Source: Hadesarchaea archaeon
Lineage (GTDB): Archaea; Hadarchaeota; Hadarchaeia; Hadarchaeales; JAGGTB01
Length of the DNA stretch: 56,683 bases
Direction: 5' to 3'
Assembly: GCA_021163965.1 (NCBI GenBank)
Contig: JAGGTB010000028.1
Location: forward strand, 1-56,683
The notes beneath the pieces are model-generated. The model was not told where the DNA came from and did no database searches. It saw only the letters and a program-made list of their open reading frames with translations. Made by a program: the position numbers and the translations under genes. Position 1 is the first letter of the stretch; each line of letters opens with the position of its first letter. This document shows, one piece after another, positions 13,949-55,508 of this stretch.

Positions 13949-14161
13949 TTGGGAAGAATTCTCGAAATAAAGGTTGTTCCGAATTCCCGAGTCGAGAAGG
14001 TAATTAAGGAAGAGCCGATAATAGTGAAAGTGAGGGATCCCCCGGAAAAAGGAAAAGCGAACAAAGCCGTCATTAAGCTACTGTCAAAGTATTTCGGCTC
14101 CAAGGTGAGGCTCATCGCGGGGAAAAGGTGCAGGAAGAAACTCGTAGAAATTGTCGAATGA
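13949..14161 (+). CDS. DUF167 / YggU-like (UPF0235) protein
   Basis: 70 aa. LEIKVVPNSRVEKV...VKVRDPPEKGKANKAVIKLLSKYFGSKVRLIAGKRCRKK fits the GKAN-containing DUF167 pattern. Confidence 0.7.
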   Translation: MGRILEIKVVPNSRVEKVIKEEPIIVKVRDPPEKGKANKAVIKLLSKYFGSKVRLIAGKRCRKKLVEIVE

Positions 14162-14176
14162 TGGATCCTCGGTAGA

Positions 14177-14434
14177 GGTGACCTCCTCCCCACGCTTTCG
14201 CACGGGGCTTCCGACTTTTCCTTCCGTTACCCCCACATCGCCTCGCTTCGGGGAACGTTTTGCCGGAAGCCTCTGGGAGCTTCCTGCTTCATCCACCGGA
14301 CTCGATCCCCGACGCGCGGGTCATCGGTTTCTCACAGGCGTTCGGTTCGGGGTGGCCGAAGAAATCGGCATGGAGGGAAATATACGGTTTTCGGCCCTCA
14401 TCCCCGCCCTCACGGAAGGGGACTCCCCGCCGAC
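14177..14434 (-). ncRNA. Unclassified structured RNA candidate, copy 1 (paralogue of 32182-32414)
   Basis: Homologous to a second locus in three collinear blocks separated by hairpin-forming expansions. One stem shows a compensatory change. GNRA-capped hairpins and G-U pairs appear only on the minus strand. A conserved TTTAAC lies just upstream (14435-14443 on the plus strand). Weaker similarity extends to about 14161. Confidence 0.5.
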
Positions 14435-14492
14435 AAAGTTAAAAACTATGGGGTAATCTAAACATTGACTATAAAGTTCAGTTGGTGTTAAC

Positions 14493-31102: not shown

Positions 31103-31420
31103 TTACACCACCTTGAGGTGCTCCGGCCTTGAAATAACTTTTTTGGTCATCCCTCCGTTCCTTATTTGAAGAACGTATGCCCGACCGCGACGCTCGACGA
31201 CGACCCCAATTTTTCCATGATACCTTGGATGCGGTTGCCCCTTTGGGACGCTGGGGTCTATATCCACGATGACTCTTGAGTTCGGAGGAAACTCCTGAAT
31301 GACTCTGCTTGGACGTGGAACTCCCCGCTCCCTTATGTGCTTTCTCAGCTTTTTCCGGGTACGACTTCGCAGTCCCTTCGGCTTGCGCCCCACAGCCCAC
31401 ACCCTCGCAAAAGTTGACAT
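31103..31420 (-). CDS. rpl21e: 50S ribosomal protein L21e
   Basis: GLRSRTRKKL...VIVDIDPSVPKGQPHPRYHGKIGVVVERRGRAYVLQI. Confidence 0.92.
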   Translation of the reverse strand: MSTFARVWAVGRKPKGLRSRTRKKLRKHIRERGVPRPSRVIQEFPPNSRVIVDIDPSVPKGQPHPRYHGKIGVVVERRGRAYVLQIRNGGMTKKVISRPEHLKVV

Positions 31421-31588: not shown

Positions 31589-31963
31589 TTGTTATATATA
31601 TAACAACGATTTCGTCCAGCGCCAAAATTTTTCATCGATGCTGCAGCGACTGATTTACACATCTCGGAAATCGATCCCTCGAAATCGCTGTTAAACAAAT
31701 CCTGTTGGGGTTCAAACCTCTCGTCCAGCCCCCGCCACGTGGATTCGAAACCCCCGCGTTAGTAGTTCCTCAATCGTTGTTATATATCCAATCGCCAATC
31801 GTTGTTATATATATAACAAACGTCGCCCGCATAGCCCCCTTTATTTTGTTACACGTGTAACAAAAAGTTCCGGATTGGAAATTCCACCGGCGCCCCACCT
31901 CCCGAACCGTCAATCCGAATCGCAGATATCCGTGATGCCGTGGATTTGTTATATATATAACAA
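31589..31963. repeat. Array of TTGTTA-N6-TAACAA palindromes in a gene-free region
   Basis: Perfect 18-bp TTGTTATATATATAACAA occurs at 31589-31606, 31802-31819 and 31946-31963. TTGTTACACGTGTAACAA occurs at 31846-31863. A half-site TTGTTATATAT lies at 31777-31787 inside a tandem CAATCGTTGTTATATAT duplication. Confidence 0.9.
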
Positions 31964-32181
31964 ATGCCCACGGACTGTTCTTCTTTTAGGCTGGAAAAAA
32001 TAAGAACGGAAATCGAAACGGTCCAATCTTTTTCTTTTTTTGACTCTAGGAAGCATAGCACCGCATTATGGTACCTAAGATTTGAAAAATGTTGAAAGAC
32101 TGGACAAATATTGGGAGCGCATGGTGGGAACATAAAAGACGGAAATCGCTGAAATGTTCTAGATGATCCGTCATCGATAAG

Positions 32182-32414
32182 GGTGACCTCCTCCTCATGC
32201 TTCCGCACGGGGCTTCCGACTTTTTTCCCTGTTACTCCCACATCGCCTCCGCTTCGGGGAGCGTTTTGCCGGGAGCCTCTGGGAGCTCCCTGCTTCATCC
32301 ACCGGACTCGATCCCGCCCCCCTTCGGGCGGTTACGGAGGTCCGATGTCCAGCCTACCCGCGCCGCGCAGGTCATCGGTTTCCCACAGGCGACGGACGGG
32401 GACTTCCCGCCGAC
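32182..32414 (-). ncRNA. Unclassified structured RNA candidate, copy 2 (paralogue of 14177-14434)
   Basis: Same three conserved blocks as copy 1, with a ~48-nt expansion at a different site. Terminal hairpin CCCCGUGC-GGAA-GCAUGAGG on the minus strand. The same TTTAAC lies immediately upstream (32415-32423 on the plus strand). Confidence 0.5.
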
Positions 32415-32465
32415 AAAGTTAAATTATCTCCCGCCATCGACTTCTCTGAAAACGGAGGAGGCGGA

Positions 32466-33734
32466 ATGAGGACATCTCGGATTCCCGGGTTTTACAAGCT
32501 GAGCGTTGATGAGAGGCTTGAGAGGGTGAAGGAGTTCGCTGGGCTTACGGATGAGGAGGTCGAGCTGCTCCGCAGGACCGGGGCATTGGAAATCGAGCAG
32601 GCGAACCGCATGGTAGAGAACGTGGTGGGAACCACGGAGCTACCTCTTGGAATCGCGACCAACTTTCTCATCAATGGTAGGGACTATCTCGTGCCCATGG
32701 CGATAGAGGAGCCCTCGGTAATCGCCGCGGCATCTAACGCCGCTAAGATGGCGCGAGAGAGGGGAGGGTTCCAAGCGGAGAGCACGGATCCGATAATGAT
32801 AGGACAGATCCAGCTCCTGGGAGTAAGGGACCCATACAAGGCGGAGGAGGTCATCCTCTCGAACAAAGAGGAGATAATCAAAATAGCGAACGAGCAGGAT
32901 CCCCTTCTAGCTAAGCTGGGAGGAGGGGCAAGGGACGTCGAGGTAAGGATCCTTGACTCCCCTGCGGGCCGGATGATCGTGGTTCACCTGCTAGTCGACA
33001 CGAGAGATGCTATGGGTGCGAACATCGTCAATACGATGGTGGAGGCGGTAAGTCCATTTATTGAGCGGATAGCTGGCGGGGATGCGCACTTCAGAATAGT
33101 CTCCAACCTCGCCACCCGAAGGCTCGCCAGGGCGCGGGCAGTCTTCGCCAAGGAGGCAATAGGGGGGGAGGAGGTCGTTGACGGGATACTCCAGGGATAT
33201 GCGTTCGCCGTCGCCGACCCCTATCGTTGCGCGACGCATAACAAAGGGGTGATGAACGGGGTGGTTGCTGTTGCCTTAGCAACGGGCAACGACAGCCGTG
33301 CGCTGGAAGCTGGAGCTCATGCTTATGCCGCCCGCAGCGGGAGATACCAGCCGCTTACACGTTGGGAGAAGAACGAGGATGGGGATCTTGTGGGGGAGAT
33401 CGAGCTCCCGGTTGCCGTTGGCATAATAGGTGGGGCAACGGGGGCACATCCAGTTGCCAAGGTGAGTCTTAAGATCCTCGGGGTAAAAACCGCTCGGGAA
33501 CTCGGGGAGGTCATGGCCGCTGTCGGGCTGGCGCAGAACTTCGCGGCGATGAGGGCAATTGCAGTAGAAGGGATCCAGCGAGGGCACATGAAGCTTCACG
33601 CCCGAAATATAGCCGCTATGGTGGGCGCCAGGGGGGAGACGATCGATAGAGTCGCGGAGCAACTGGTTAGGGAGGGAAGGATAAGAGCCGACCGAGCGAA
33701 GGAGATCCTCGAGGAGCTACAACGCCGAGGGTAG
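32466..33734 (+). CDS. hmgA: HMG-CoA reductase, class II-like
   Basis: 422 aa, soluble. [13 protein letters not shown]...[41 protein letters not shown]...[10 protein letters not shown]...[10 protein letters not shown] resembles the class II (Pseudomonas/Archaeoglobus-type) enzyme rather than the usual archaeal class I enzyme. Confidence 0.9.
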
Positions 33735-36954: not shown

Positions 36955-37176
36955 TCAAGTCCCTGTTGGTTTTTTTCTTTTGCCAAGAAGTTTTCTGGCG
37001 AGGGTCTTAAAAGCCTTGGCGCTCGATGAGCTCGCTTTCCTTACCATTATTGGCTCTCCCATCGCGATTGACTTGCGGATTTCTGGGTCCTCCGGGATTT
37101 TTGCAAGTATCGGTAGCTCCAACACCTGGTCACCGAAATCTAACATATCTTCACGCGAAGACATGGTAGGTCGGTT
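36955..37176 (-). pseudogene. C-terminal remnant of a MinD/ParA-family P-loop ATPase
   Basis: ...SREDMLDFGDQVLELPILAKIPEDPEIRKSIAMGEPIMV...SSSAKAFKTLARKLLG aligns by eye with the C-terminal ~65 residues of MinD (E. coli SRGDMLSMEDVLEILRIKLVGVIPED...). No Walker A or N-terminal ~200 aa is found on either side of the adjacent insertion. Confidence 0.6.
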
Positions 37177-38423
37177 TTCAAGCTCCGCGGGAAGCGGAGC
37201 CCCCGGATACCAGGGATTTCCGGGTAGCCTCCGCCGCGCGAGGCGGCCTCATCGTGCACCAGACCATCGGCCTGGTGCAGGGCGGTAAGCCCGCTTCCCG
37301 CGCTTAGCCTACGCCTCGGACTTCCATCGCCTTCATCCGACGCGACACCGCGCGGGATCCCATCTGGAGATGAGCGCAAAGCCTTGAACGCCCCGTAGTC
37401 GAGAACCTTGAGGGCGAACGCGGCGGCGGAGCACTTGTGCACGTCCAAACCGACGAGATGCGAGAGGCACACGCCGAGCTTGGTCGTGTAAGCCTCGCTC
37501 CGGGGCTCCGCGCCGCACTTGTACTCGAGGATCGAGCCGAGCTTGCGGTGGGGGATGCGCTTGACCCTCCGGTTCGCCCCGCGATTCCCCCTGAACTTCG
37601 CCGTGCTGAGCCTGCCGTACACGACCCTAGCGCCGTGGTGCCGGGCGATGTCGCGGATCTTGTTCGCGGTCGCGTGGAGCAGGTTGTCCGTCTTATTCGA
37701 CGAGGCGTGCTGGACCTCGTGGCAGTTTATTCTACCCGTTGCCACTACGCGCTCGCGCTCCGCAACCGCGAAGTCGACGTGGCCGGCGTTAACATCGAGA
37801 GCCATCACGCGCTTCGGCTCTGGCTTCGGTTCCTCCGGAACCTCGACCACGATCCGCACGTCGTGCCCCCCGTCCTCCCGCCGCTTGATCGTCACGGTGT
37901 AGGGCCTGCCCCCGTCGAGCAGGTGGCCGTAGCGCCGGAGGTACTTCCCGGGGATGAAAAGCTCGGGGTAGATCCAGCGCTCGCTCACGCCGGCTCCGGG
38001 CGGCACGTTGATGCGGAGCATTAGCTTACCGTCCACCCGGACGATCCGAGCGTTCAGGTTGCCCTTTTTGGTCCGGTCGCCGCGCGAGACGATCAGCGAG
38101 TCGCGCCGCCTGCGGTACTCCTCGCGCGATATTTCCCCCCGCTCGCGCAGGCGCTGGAGCTTGAGCCCCCCGAAGGTCACGTGAGGGGGCAGATCCTTGA
38201 TCGAGTGGTAGGCATCCTTGACGTAGCGGGAGTTGAGCCCCAGCTGTTCCTGCAGGATCCGCTCGACCTCGGCCTTCGGGATGCCGCGTTGCTTGAGCGT
38301 ATACGCCCGCCGCCTGGCGTTGTCGAAGCGGCGGTAGAGTTCTTCTAGGCGGGCCTCGTCGCGCGGGTCGATGCGCGCGAGCGTGGCGGGGATCGCGAGC
38401 TTGGGCAAAGACTCACCCTCCAA
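37140..38423 (-). CDS. IS200/IS605-type accessory protein (TnpB/OrfB-like), no TnpA nearby
   Basis: 427 aa. RuvC-I-like MALDVNAGHVDFAV, then ...ILEYKCGAEPRSEAYTTKLG... (the YTSK-like motif) and HKCSAAAFALKVL (NAAxNI-like). No CxxC pairs are present. Composition is visibly more GC-rich than the flanks. TTG start with TTATAATTTA about 20 nt upstream. Confidence 0.75.
   Translation of the reverse strand: MEGESLPKLAIPATLARIDPRDEARLEELYRRFDNARRRAYTLKQRGIPKAEVERILQEQLGLNSRYVKDAYHSIKDLPPHVTFGGLKLQRLRERGEISREEYRRRRDSLIVSRGDRTKKGNLNARIVRVDGKLMLRINVPPGAGVSERWIYPELFIPGKYLRRYGHLLDGGRPYTVTIKRREDGGHDVRIVVEVPEEPKPEPKRVMALDVNAGHVDFAVAERERVVATGRINCHEVQHASSNKTDNLLHATANKIRDIARHHGARVVYGRLSTAKFRGNRGANRRVKRIPHRKLGSILEYKCGAEPRSEAYTTKLGVCLSHLVGLDVHKCSAAAFALKVLDYGAFKALRSSPDGIPRGVASDEGDGSPRRRLSAGSGLTALHQADGLVHDEAASRGGGYPEIPGIRGLRFPRSLKTDLPCLRVKIC
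37178..37400 (-). ncRNA. Hairpin-dense 3' tail of the TnpB-like element (omega/reRNA-like candidate)
   Basis: Consecutive perfect stems on the minus strand: GCACCAG-N9-CUGGUGC, CCGCC-N6-GGCGG, CCCGGA-N11-UCCGGG and GCUCCGC-UUCC-GCGGAGC. They overlap the last ~80 low-complexity codons of the ORF and end at the junction with the MinD remnant. Confidence 0.4.
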
Positions 38424-38646
38424 GCGGGTCTCTCTCTGAAGCTAAATTATAAGTCGCTTTGGGGGAGAGGTGCCCGAAAGTAATCCCTCGGTTTTATTAG
38501 GATTTATGAAATTATGTTGGGTCATTGACAACTGTCACTCATCTCCTCTATTTCCTTCCGCCCCATGAAGACCAAGAAAAAGAGGAGTTACAAACAGTTT
38601 AACTTTACCGTCCGGGGGCCCCCTCTGCTGAGATAGATGGCCGGAG

Positions 38647-49651: not shown

Positions 49652-51119
<1,468 letters not shown>

Positions 51120-51149
51120 TCGAAGCTTTGGGGGTGTCGGACTCTCGGA

Positions 51150-51224
51150 GGGCCTGTAGCTCAGCGGTAGAGCGTCGGCTTTGCAAGCCGAAGGTCTCGG
51201 GTTCAAATCCCGACAGGTCCACCA
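51150..51224 (+). tRNA. tRNA-Ala (UGC) in the 16S-23S spacer, CCA encoded
   Basis: GGGCCUGUAGCUCAGCGGUAGAGCGUCGGCUUUGCAAGCCGAAGGUCUCGGGUUCAAAUCCCGACAGGUCCACCA. The G3:U70 identity pair is present. Confidence 0.95.
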
Positions 51225-53379
51225 CACTTCCAGCCTGCAAAGCTTTACTTTGCAGGTGTCGGGCAAAATTGCACGTTTGGTGCAAGATGATTGCCATGCA
51301 TAGGTCCATCCTCCAGCGCCAGCCGAACTAGGGATCAGTAGGAACTGGCACGCTAAGCCACTTGGGGGATGGCTCGGCTCGGGCGCCGAGGAAGGTCGTG
51401 ACAAGCTGCGATAAGCCCGGGCGAGGTGCACGTAGCCTTTGAACCCGGGATCGCTGAATGGGACTTCCTGGCGCGATAAAATCGCGTCGTTCGCGGTAGC
51501 GAACGGGAACCCCGGGAACTGAAACATCTTAGTACCGGGAGGAAAAGAAAGCAAATGCGATGCCCTGAGTAGCGGCGAGCGAAAAGGGCACAGGGCAAAC
51601 CGAACCTGGTGGGGAAACCCACTGGGGATGTGGGGTTGCAGGACCCGATCGCCATCTCCCCAGGGAAGCCGAAGTCCCCTGGAAAGGGGCGCCATAGAGG
51701 GTGATAGCCCCGTAGGCGCAACCTGGGAGGTGTTGGATCGGGTATCCTGAGTACCGTGCCTTGGTATTGGCGCGGGAAGCTGGGAGGCACCAACTCCCAA
51801 CCCTAAATACGTCCCGAGACCGATAGCGAACGCAGTACCGTGAGGGAAAGCTGAAAAGTACCCCGAAAGGGGGGTGAAAAGAGCCTGAAACCAAGTGGCG
51901 ACAGTTGGACATGGCTCGAAAGAAATGATTCTCCCCAAAGGAAACCACGGCGACGTGGAAGTACGAGGGGAGAGGATCGGGGTCATGTCGTCCGTTTAGA
52001 AACACGGGCCAGGGAGTTCACTGCCGTGGCGAGGTTAAGGAGTTCACCTCCGGAGCCGCAGCGAAAGCGACATGCCCACAGCCCCGTATGGGGTGAGGGG
52101 CGGGGTGTGAAAGCGCCCGAAGTCACGGCAGTGAGACCCGAAGCCGGGGCGATCTAGCCCGGGGCAGGGTGAAGCCGACCTCCGGGTCGGTGGAGGCCCG
52201 AACCGGTCTTGATGTGCAATTCAGTCGGATGACCCTGGGCTAGTGGCGAAAGACCAATCAAGCCCGGCGATAGCTGGTTCCCCCCGAAGCTGGCCGCAGT
52301 CAGGCCCAGCGCGAGGTTGCCAGCGGTGTAGAGCACTGATTGGTGAGTGCGGGGGGAAACCCTCGGCTCACCTGTCAAACTCCGAAGCCGCTGGCGCTGT
52401 AGACCGCTGGAGTTAGGGTGCGGGGGGTAAGCTCCCGCCCCGAGAGGGGAACAACCCAGACCAAGGTTAAGGCCCCTAAATGCCGGCTAAGTGTCAAACC
52501 AAAGGGCGTCTTCGTCCTTAGACAGCGGGGAGGTAGGCTTAGAAGCAGCCATCCTTTAAACAACGCGTAAAAGCGGACCCGTCGAGGGCGAAGGCCCCGA
52601 AAATGGACGGGGCTTAAGCCGGCTGCCGAGACCTTGGGGCAGGCGAAGTTTAGTAGCCTGATCCGGTAGGGGGGCGTCCTGCGAGGGCAGAAGCGCGGCC
52701 GTGAGGTCGCGTGGACCTCGTAGGAATGAAGATCCTGGCGGTAGTAGCAGCGAAGTGGGGTGAGAATCCCCACCGCCGAAGGGGCCCGGGTTCCTCGACG
52801 ATGTTCATCAGTCGAGGGTTAGTCGGTCCTAAGGCTACCCTCAACCAGAGGTAGCCGAAAGGGAAACCGGTTAATATTCCGGTACCGCCCAAGTACCTGC
52901 GGCAACGCAAGCTCGGCTCCTGACGCTCAGGGGTACGCCGAGCAGGGCCGTCGCCCTGTCTAACCGTGCAAGCCCGGGGAGTGCCGTAATGGCGAGAACC
53001 GGGTGAACGCGGGAATGGCTCGCCTAAGGCGAGTTCGGCGGAGCCCTAGAGCCCGTGAAAAGGGAGCCGAGAATTGGGATCTTGGGCGACCGTACCTAGA
53101 TCCGACACAGGTGCCCCTAGGTGAGTAGCCTAAGGCGTGCCGGGGGATCCCAGGCTAGGGAAATCGGCAAACTGGCCCCGTGCCTTCGGTCGAAGGGGTG
53201 CCTGCCATGCGGATGGCAGGTCGCAGTGACCAGGGGGGGCCGACTGTTTAATAAAAACGTAGTTAACCGCTAGCCCGAAAGGGTGTGTACGGTTAATGAA
53301 TCCTGCCCAGTGGAGGTACGTGAAGCTGGAGTCCAATCCAGCGAAGCGCCTCTAAACGGCGGGGGTAACTATAACCCTC

Positions 53380-54232
53380 GAGTAGGGGGTTGTAAAACCC
53401 GGCTGTATGCGGGGAAGAGTTGAAAATGCGGGCTACCCTTTGGGTAACAAAGCCCGCGTTTGGTGATCTCGACCCGCAGGAAACCCCGGAGAGCTAGAAA
53501 AGCATAATTTAGCAAAGCGTAACAAAGTCCCTCTTAAGGGAACAGAATGTCGCTGGCTTACTTGGTGGGCGTCATGCTGGGTGACGGTGGCGTCTACGGA
53601 AACACGTATACAGTTTTCTGTAGGGACGGGGACAAAAGGTTCGTGCAGTGGTGTGCGGAGAGGGTCAGGGAAATCTTTGGGATCCAACCGAGAATTCACA
53701 AAGCAGCCCCGAACTGTTGGGCCGTCAGCACGAACAGGGCGGAGATTCACCAATTTATGTGCAAGCTCGGATATCCAAAAGGACGAAAATCGACCGCTGC
53801 CAGGATCCCAGAGATTTTTCTGAGGAGTAGAAGTGACAGGATCGATGTCGTCAAGGGGCTATTCGATGCCGAGGGGTATTGTGGAATTGACAGGCAAAAA
53901 CACGGGAACAAGGTCTATCGGTATCCCTACGTGGGCATTGATATGATAGCGAAGCCAGTAATTAAAGAAGTAAGAAAAATTCTTGGAGAACTTGGCATCA
54001 GTTGTAGCCTTCAAGTCAAGAAACCTCGCGCGTGGGGAAAAAATCCGCAGTGGTCCTTGGTGGTCAAAGGACACGGCGGAGTAGCAGAGTTCGAGAAAAA
54101 AGTGGGGTTCAGGCATCCAGCGAAATCAGCGCGTTTAGAAGAGCTCGTTGAAGGGGGATCCTCAGAGACCATACGCTGGGCGCCCTAGATAGGGCGATGA
54201 TATGGTCCACCCTTCTCCAATGAGGAGGGAGC
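53380..54232 (+). mobile_element. Archaeal-type rRNA intron in 23S domain IV carrying a homing endonuclease gene
   Basis: Removing 53380-54232 restores the universal AACCCUC|UUAAGGUAGCG. The exon-1 end CCCUC can pair with GAGGG at the intron 3' end, as expected for a bulge-helix-bulge site. Boundaries are accurate to about 1 nt. Confidence 0.85.
53547..54188 (+). CDS. LAGLIDADG homing endonuclease (double-motif, monomeric type)
   Basis: 213 aa with two dodecapeptide motifs, LAYLVGVMLGDGGV and VVKGLFDAEGYCG. Lies entirely within the 23S intron. Confidence 0.9.
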   Translation: MSLAYLVGVMLGDGGVYGNTYTVFCRDGDKRFVQWCAERVREIFGIQPRIHKAAPNCWAVSTNRAEIHQFMCKLGYPKGRKSTAARIPEIFLRSRSDRIDVVKGLFDAEGYCGIDRQKHGNKVYRYPYVGIDMIAKPVIKEVRKILGELGISCSLQVKKPRAWGKNPQWSLVVKGHGGVAEFEKKVGFRHPAKSARLEELVEGGSSETIRWAP

Positions 54233-54865
54233 TTAAGGTAGCGAAATGCCTTGCCGCTTAATTGGCGGCTCGCATGAATGGATCAACGAGCCCCCCGCTG
54301 TCCCAGCCTGGGTCCCGGTGAACCCACTGGCTGGCGCACATGCCAGGGACCCCCGAAGGGAAGCGAAGACCCCGTGGAGCTTTACTGCAGCCTGTCGTTG
54401 GAGTGCGGCTGTGGGTGTAGAGCGTAGGCGGGAGCCTTGGAAGCCGGGTCGCCAGGCCCGGTGGAGGCGCCAATGTAACACCGCCCTCCCGTAGCTGTGC
54501 TTCTAACCGCTTCGGCGGGACAGCGGCAGGTGGGCAGTTTCGCTGGGGCGGCAGCCTCTCGAAAAAATATCGAGAGGGCCCAAAGGTCGGCTTAGGCGGG
54601 TCAGAAATCCGCCGTCAAGGGCAAGGCCAGAAGCCGGCCTGACTGCGTCCTCACCAACGGAGGACGCAGGGGCGAAAGCCGGGCCTAGCGAACCTCGGTG
54701 TCCCTCTTGGTGAGGGCCCGAGATGACAGAAAAGCTACCCCGGGGATAACAGAGTGGTAGCCTGCGAGAGCCCATATCGACCAGGCTGCTTGCTACCTCG
54801 ATGTCGGTTCTCCCTATCCTGGCCGTGCAGCAGCGGCCAAGGGTGGGGTTGTTCGCCCATTAAAA

Positions 54866-54904
<39 letters not shown>

Positions 54905-55397
54905 AGATGCTATCTTTCGGGGGTGTTGGGTGCCTGAGGGGAAGGTGGCCTTAGTACGAGAGGAACAGGCCGCCGGCGCCTCTGGTGTACCGGTTGTCCG
55001 ACAGGGCAGAGCCGGGCAGCTACGCGCTAGCCGATAAGGCCTGAAAGCATCTAAGGCCGAAGCGGCTCCCGAAAATAGGCACCCATTCCCGACATGCCGA
55101 AAGGCACCGGGACCGGTGACGGTCACGGTTGTCGGGACGAGGACCGAGGCCAGAAGACCTCGTTGATAGGCCGGGGGTGTAAGCACGGAGCTTCGGCGAC
55201 GTGTTCAGCCCGCCGGTACTAATCGTCCGAGGTGCCAGTTCCCAAAGTCCCTAGCTCGGGCGATTCTGGGGATGGACCTATGCATGGTTTTCTTTTTTGT
55301 GTTGTTGGGGCGCAACGATGCCCAACTTTCCCACCGGCGAAAAGCGGAGCGGGATTCCAAAATCGTTAAGAGGTTTTAAGATTGGGATTAGAATGGT

Positions 55398-55508
55398 GGG
55401 CCCATAGCTCAGCGGTAGATTGGGTCTAAACCCAAGCCGAAAGCGCCGCCTTCGCATGCGCTCCGGAAAAGGCGGAGGTCGCGGGTTCAAATCCCGCTGG
55501 GTCCACCA
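55398..55508 (+). tRNA. tRNA-Ala (CGC) with two introns, CCA encoded
   Basis: Hand fold. Acceptor GGGCCCA/UGGGUCC with G3:U70. The D arm is interrupted after GCUC-AGCGGUA-GA by 23 nt (55420-55442). Anticodon stem CCGCC/GGCGG has loop UUCGCA + A, interrupted by 13 nt at the canonical 37/38 site (55457-55469). T arm GCGGG-UUCAAAU-CCCGC. Confidence 0.8.

Follow-up and report, generated by a model that had tools for sequence, protein, structure and literature searches.

A probable gene-less derivative of an IS200/IS605-family element, encoding an omega-RNA scaffold, upstream of hmgA in a Hadesarchaea archaeon

The stretch of DNA analysed here (the window, 56,683 nt in length) is a contig of archaeal origin and carries an rRNA operon (49652-55242). 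Upstream of hmgA, the gene for HMG-CoA reductase, its minus strand carries a short element at 32183-32418 that is in all likelihood (probability about 0.93) a palindrome-associated transposable element (PATE), i.e., a non-autonomous, internally deleted derivative of the IS200/IS605 family (tnpB-only, IS1341-type) that encodes an omega-RNA scaffold. In a PATE, the two ends of an IS200/IS605 element are joined without a gene between them, the core having been deleted; such elements were first described from Haloquadratum walsbyi (PMC3119063). The element is present in multiple copies, has its ends in common with tnpB elements, adjoins a target motif that is not duplicated, and has a conserved RNA fold. 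An earlier note had described it and a second sequence in the window as paralogous stand-alone RNAs with helix insertions; the data presented below point instead to a gene-less tnpB derivative whose copies have undergone differing internal deletions. The features are listed in Table 1.

Table 1. Features of the element, its relatives and its surroundings (window positions unless another contig is named)
Feature	Position	Strand	Length	Basis or remark
Copy 2, whole element	32183-32418	minus	236 nt	
Transposon-adjacent motif (TAM) 5'-TTTAA-3', the insertion target, adjoining the left end on its 5' side	32419-32423	minus		logo of 30 copies
Left-end (LE) remnant	32393-32418	minus	26 nt	alignment with full-length copies on C6 and C8 and with copy 1
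Right-end module, "type II"	32183-32392	minus	210 nt	covariance model R1, covariation
Right-end subterminal hairpin, CCCCGUGC-GGAA-GCAUGAGG	32193-32212	minus		read directly from the sequence
3' flank outside copy 2	32138-32182	minus		similar to the copy 1 flank over ~45 nt
Copy 1, same element	14178-14438	minus		TAM at 14439-14443
Terminal block recurring in the genome			~50 nt	end always ...AAGTTAA on the window plus strand
Second recurring block	32281-32391		~110 nt	
Third recurring block	32182-32283		~100 nt	
Type I element			~250 nt	start GTGAACTACCCC (plus orientation), end ...GTTAA
Type II element			~330 nt	start GTGACCTCCTCC (plus orientation), end ...GTTAA
hmgA (HMG-CoA reductase)	32466-33734	plus		ATG 43 nt beyond TTAA; element against the likely TATA box
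Palindrome sites	31589-31963; C9:11119-12475; C10:5543-5768; C17:16619-16830; C43, C18, C5			

The element and its copies

The host assembly (780,365 bases in 56 contigs, 85.6% complete, 53.6% G+C) was searched with the element, which gave 59 matches, and three blocks were found to recur independently of each other. A pattern search located 30 copies of the left terminus, with 84-95% identity, and a covariance model (CM R1, built from nine type I cores) located about 22 copies of the RNA module, in modular forms. The two diverged copies reported in the earlier note are thus both real, but they make up only part of the family. Coverage profiles and an alignment of 15 copies defined two length classes with sharp common boundaries, type II being type I plus ~78 nt bracketed by a GGAAGC repeat. 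In type II copies from four genomes, the similarity stops exactly at GTGACC. Several copies are truncated, in different ways, and many are found at contig ends, as expected of repeats that break an assembly.

Between an L21e-like ORF (ending at 31420) and the hmgA ATG at 32466 there are 1045 nt free of genes, and copy 2 occupies the edge nearer to hmgA. It had previously been placed at 32162-32425, a range that includes the element together with flanking DNA (32162-32182) and the target motif (32419-32423). At 236 nt, it is too short to encode a transposase. Of the LE subterminal hairpin, its left end has kept no more than the 5' half, as seen by alignment; the 3' half and the TATA-like box (TTTATAG or TATATTT) that lies ~70 nt inside the left end of full copies have both been deleted. 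The remnant is 83-94% identical to the left end upstream of the tnpB gene on contig C33 (see below). The right-end module is retained at its full type II length and is made up of what remains of the tnpB C-terminal codons (..TPV..stop) and then the omega-RNA scaffold, which extends to the ...GGUCAC boundary; the tnpB remnant stops after ..TPV(G/E)NR. CM R1 scored 105.7 bits for copy 2 at 32261-32392. The right-end hairpin is separated from the end of the element by 10 nt. With the 3' half of the LE hairpin and the TATA-like box lost, copy 2 is most likely a fossil, probably immobile and without a promoter of its own, from which RNA would be made by read-through, if at all.

In copy 1, the LE hairpin and the internal TATA-like box are intact, while ~45 nt of the scaffold core present in copy 2 is missing, and CM R1 scored just 42.7 bits. 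Conversely, ~71 nt of copy 1 (14341-14411) is missing from copy 2. A BLAST comparison within the window matched 32143-32315 to 14139-14309 with 85% identity over 175 nt, plus two short blocks at 90-94%, bearing out the conserved structured core claimed for the two copies, and AAAGTTAAA was indeed found on the plus strand in both. Judging from these alignments, what had been seen as a variable arm at different junctions is the product of two different internal deletions from a common type II ancestor.

The similarity between the copies continues beyond the GGUCAC end into the flanks, as noted earlier, although over a longer distance than the ~20 nt then claimed: 32138-32182 (the 3' flank of copy 2, CCTTATCGATGACGG) and 14133-14177 are alike over ~45 nt (z ~6, 0 of 1000 shuffles). 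The copy 1 flank is the 3' end of a DUF167 gene. This likeness possibly reflects a duplication, or a transposition that carried flanking DNA along. However, conservation is ~67% in the flank versus 85-91% in the element, which a simple duplication does not explain.

The earlier note had suggested comparing the length of the spacer upstream of hmgA in relatives. In 52 loci, the gap upstream of hmgA did not exceed 506 nt and had a median of 97 nt, compared to 1045 nt here. Since L21e was never found beside hmgA in the relatives, this comparison is one of length only. The closest hmgA loci in 24 related genomes and a metagenome collection had at most 80% protein identity; no close relative is present in these collections, and no empty site was found in them. 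The excess in the hmgA spacer consists of the PATE and a palindrome array, which belongs to a second repeat family. These TTGTTA-N6-TAACAA palindromes, with TATATA or CACGTG cores, occur 42 times in the genome in clusters with recurring flanks, and lie directly against PATE left ends at C5:30594, C18:3678, C43:4874 and C15:1713.

Two further observations were made elsewhere in the window. The 23S rRNA match at 51341-55242 is 3902 nt long, compared to a model of 2987 positions, suggesting that ~900 nt (an intron or other sequence) is inserted. A tRNA match at 55398-55505 is 108 nt long, compared to a model of 71 positions, and probably represents an intron-containing tRNA.

Target motif and kinship with tnpB elements

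Among the 30 left ends, the bases immediately 5' of the element in the RNA sense are T (23/30), T (30/30), T (29/30), A (28/30) and A (30/30), which gives TTTAA; the background frequency of T and A is 23%. The TTTAAC sequence that had been considered as a possible promoter is this target motif plus the first base of the left end, and the TATA-like box of full copies is deleted in copy 2. A head-to-head pair of elements on contig C13 (C13:20347-20416) has one palindromic TTAA common to both, which places the TTAA outside the element. This site and a second one at C43:4945, where two elements also meet head to head at one TTAA, are cases in which one palindromic target received an insertion on each strand. 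In the window, TTTAACTTTACCGTCCGGGGGCCCCC at 38598-38630 (plus strand) resembles the TAM and left-end start of the same element family, and may be a solo left-end remnant beside a rad50-like gene.

No target-site duplication was found: the flanks at the right ends all differ, and none has TTAA at its start or any other duplication. Nor are there terminal inverted repeats, the termini CTTTGTCGG... and ...GGAGGTCAC not being complementary. Instead, full copies have a 9-bp hairpin at the left end (UCCCCUUCC-GNRA-GGGAGGGGA), half of which is deleted in copy 2, and an 8-bp hairpin that lies 8-10 nt before the right end and has GAAA or GGAA as its loop. Hairpins near both ends, in combination with a lack of inverted repeats and target duplications, are defining features of IS200/IS605 elements and of gene-less PATEs (PMC3119063). 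The earlier note had named many scattered, near-identical copies and target-site duplications as the marks of a mobile repeat; scattered copies were found in quantity (30 termini, 84-95% identity), and duplications are absent, as expected for the IS200/IS605 family.

A search of the genome with the Pfam model PF07282 identified three tnpB-like places. At C33:5883-7031, the order in the RNA sense is TTAA, left end, a 383-aa ORF and right end. The left end is 84-94% identical to the terminal block of the repeat, and the ORF matched OrfB_IS605 (2.3e-28), HTH_OrfB_IS605 (3e-10) and the first half of the TNB domain (8.4e-11). The right end, ...GAAGCAGGAAGCCCCCCGCGAAAGCTGGGAGCAGTTCAC (also ...GCAGTTCAC), is 84-86% identical to the type I end. 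The start of the RNA module and internal block, ACGCCTGTGGA (ACGCCUGUGGA), encodes TPVE of the TnpB C-terminus in C33. A Hadesarchaea metagenome-assembled genome (MAG) contains a locus, L026, with the same left end, a tnpB gene at 81-83% protein identity and the same right end, and the right end of the repeat, over its last ~35-50 nt, matches those that flank tnpB on C33 and at L026 with 81-86% identity. Because its ends are held in common with these tnpB elements, the repeat corresponds to a tnpB element with the core deleted and the left end fused to the right end. Fragments of tnpB are also found at the ends of contigs C14, C42 and C50, and the Pfam search found another tnpB-like fragment, separate from these, where C28 begins.

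CM R1 also matched the last ~110 nt of full-length tnpB genes in relatives, at no fewer than 14 loci. There is no tnpB adjacent to either copy in the window, and their position at a tnpB 3' end is established by homology. The longer variant of the scaffold (119-135 nt core) was found in gene-less copies only, in four genomes, the tnpB-linked matches being the shorter 110-nt version. The Y1 transposase TnpA (PF01797) had no match in the 780-kb, 85.6% complete assembly, which leaves present mobility unsupported, but has no bearing on the origin of the element.

The TnpB proteins of the clade that shares its ends with the elements (C33:5883-7031, L072-L075, L073 and L093) lack a zinc ribbon, ~21 residues including CxxC...CxxC being replaced by 4-5 residues. 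In six genomes these proteins are encoded by intact ORFs, for the most part with the RuvC D, E and D residues in place. A sister clade (L076-L080) has kept the zinc ribbon. A 427-aa ORF in the window (37140-38423, minus strand), considered as a TnpB candidate, has no Pfam TnpB domain; its BLASTP similarity to the C33 TnpB is collinear, but weak (E = 0.005 and 0.014).

Strand, fold and distribution of the RNA

GNRA loops (GAAA, GCAA, GGAA and GUGA) are present on the minus strand of the window only, and the helices contain many G-U pairs that fit only that strand. The folding energy was -102.4 kcal/mol for the minus strand versus -85.3 kcal/mol for the plus strand. In single-sequence folding, neither strand did better than shuffled sequences (z -0.96), and the claim of structure therefore rests on covariation. 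In an alignment of 31 sequences, which was fitted to the model and contains related sequences, 95.3% of cells were paired, compared to 85.5% in shuffles, and 16 of 35 pairs changed on both sides, compared to 8.4 ± 1.5 in shuffles; 0 of 500 shuffles came up to the observed values. Controls in which the positions were slid gave 33-52% pairing. Helix 6 of the model is the right-end hairpin, and six of its eight pairs have changes on both sides. On the evidence of the GNRA loops, the G-U pairs, the covariation and the orientation of tnpB, all of which agree, the RNA sense is the minus strand, directed away from hmgA, as the earlier note had held.

A conserved, covarying fold located at the 3' end of tnpB is as expected for a TnpB omega-RNA scaffold (PMC8612924; PMC10055086). 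An Rfam search of the region gave nothing at the gathering threshold. The sole notable match on the RNA-sense strand, in E-value mode, was to HgcC (RF00062), at 13.6 bits compared to a gathering score of 50 (E = 2.6). By the Rfam criterion, the element is not a member of this family; still, the HgcC family has been linked to a motif resembling the IS1341 right end (PMC4615843), which fits this far sub-threshold match.

The distribution of the RNA is patchy. CM R1 found 22 places in the host genome. Across the order, 22 of 65 genomes gave matches, the largest number in a single genome being 17, and the eight genomes of the same family gave none. The left-end motif was present in MAGs labelled Methanomethylicaceae, Hadesarchaea, Heimdallarchaeota, Borrarchaeota, Sifarchaeum, Thermoplasmata, Methanosarcinales and Aenigmatarchaeota, and with MAGs of several archaeal phyla represented, the element family is widespread among archaea.

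Alternatives, proposed mechanism and significance

We considered the possibility that the copies constitute an independent, host-encoded family of structured RNA genes, in which paralogues tolerate arm insertions and serve a cellular function apart from transposons. The conserved fold with compensatory changes would fit such a family, as would the restriction of the longer scaffold to gene-less copies in four genomes and the divergence of the copies, which are not near-identical (84-95%). However, the family has its ends in common with tnpB elements, shows the TTTAA target and boundaries of an IS605-type element, and comprises 30 copies, several of them variously truncated. The RNA is moreover absent from all eight genomes of the same family and scattered in the order, and has no Rfam counterpart apart from the sub-threshold HgcC match, and we regard this explanation as very unlikely. 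A classical MITE, moved by a DDE transposase and possessing terminal inverted repeats and a TTAA duplication, would likewise be short, non-coding, multi-copy and intergenic, with TTAA at one end. A MITE is effectively ruled out by the lack of a duplication, the other end having no TTAA, and by termini that are not inverted repeats; the ends moreover match those of a tnpB element.

The location of the copies suggested yet another role, that of a domesticated promoter module, in which the LE, by lying against TATA boxes, provides a BRE-like ACAAAG and has been kept for driving hmgA, pdxS and other genes. The distance from the TTAA to the downstream ATG is 43 nt for hmgA and 50 nt for pdxS, the same layout is seen for several other copies and two tRNA genes, and the flank beyond the TAM is AT-rich. 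When left ends and intergenic TTAAA sites were compared by one ORF rule, however, an outward ORF start within 90 nt was found for 10 of 29 left ends and for 115 of 331 TTAAA sites (35%; p = 0.58), and about one third of the copies face the 3' ends of genes or sit far from genes. In the absence of enrichment over intergenic TTAAA, the layout follows from the target motif in AT-rich promoter DNA, without need for a special role, and a promoter module appears highly improbable.

The PATE interpretation suggests the following sequence of events. The ancestor of copy 2 would have entered the AT-rich promoter region of hmgA on the 3' side of a TTTAA, and would since have been reduced to 26 nt of its left end, fused to a complete right-end module. 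In full elements, the last codons of tnpB lie within this module, which encodes the omega-RNA scaffold. By analogy with known systems, transcription of an active element would begin at the left end, cross the scaffold and continue into the 3' flank, the first 16-20 nt of which would become the guide of a read-through omega-RNA; copy 2 would have CCUUAUCGAUGACGG... as its guide, read downward from window position 32182. A TnpB acting in trans may then bind the scaffold and cut empty sites adjacent to TTTAA, with recombination restoring the element (PMC10055086). The 3' half of the LE hairpin, which the TnpA transposase would need, is gone from copy 2. A search for trans targets of the flank-derived guides, allowing up to three mismatches in 16 nt, gave chance-level matches only, none of them adjoining TTTAA, and the right-end pattern was too loose. 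The long scaffold, with its core of 119-135 nt and the type II extension of 78 nt, has kept its fold across at least four genomes. It is conceivable, if rather unlikely, that such orphan omega-RNAs, each with a guide taken from its own flank, are working guides in trans with zinc-ribbon-less TnpB, either for homing or for TldR-like regulation of their neighbours.

The element resembles previously described PATEs in its lack of inverted repeats and target duplications, its hairpins near both ends, its lack of room for a gene, its tnpB-element ends, its origin by core deletion, and in the heterogeneity of its partly deleted copies. It differs from them in its Hadesarchaea-type host lineage, in the length of the retained right end (130-210 nt, in two length classes) and in the halved LE hairpin of copy 2. 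PATE-borne omega-RNAs are known to act with TnpB in trans (PMC10055086), and both RNAs from the 3' ends of archaeal tnpB genes (sotRNAs) and a PATE-derived RNA, VNG_R0052, have been described (PMC4615843). As in the TnpB omega-RNA or reRNA (PMC8612924), the RNA runs over the 3' end of tnpB as far as the right-end boundary and folds into a conserved structure; its guide would come from the flank, and the insertion target doubles as the TAM. Unlike that RNA, it has no adjacent tnpB, its expression and its binding by TnpB are putative, its scaffold variant was found in gene-less elements only, and it has no curated Rfam match. A parallel in target is with SisTnpB1 of Sulfolobus islandicus, a TnpB tested in vitro whose TAM is TTTAA (PMC10640517). 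Both are archaeal IS200/IS605 elements with a 5'-TTTAA TAM beside the left end and an omega-RNA at the tnpB 3' end, but they differ in lineage and sequence, and the tnpB clade with the ends described here has no zinc ribbon.

The two "unclassified RNAs" of the window thus reduce to one family of relics of TnpB transposons, which removes a false lead, and the family accounts for many of the contig breaks in the assembly. Annotators of Hadesarchaea-type MAGs can draw on defined element boundaries, on TTTAA as the target motif and on a covariance model with which about 22 RNA-module loci are labelled per genome. While no new mechanism is involved, one archaeal lineage is added to the range of PATE-borne omega-RNAs.
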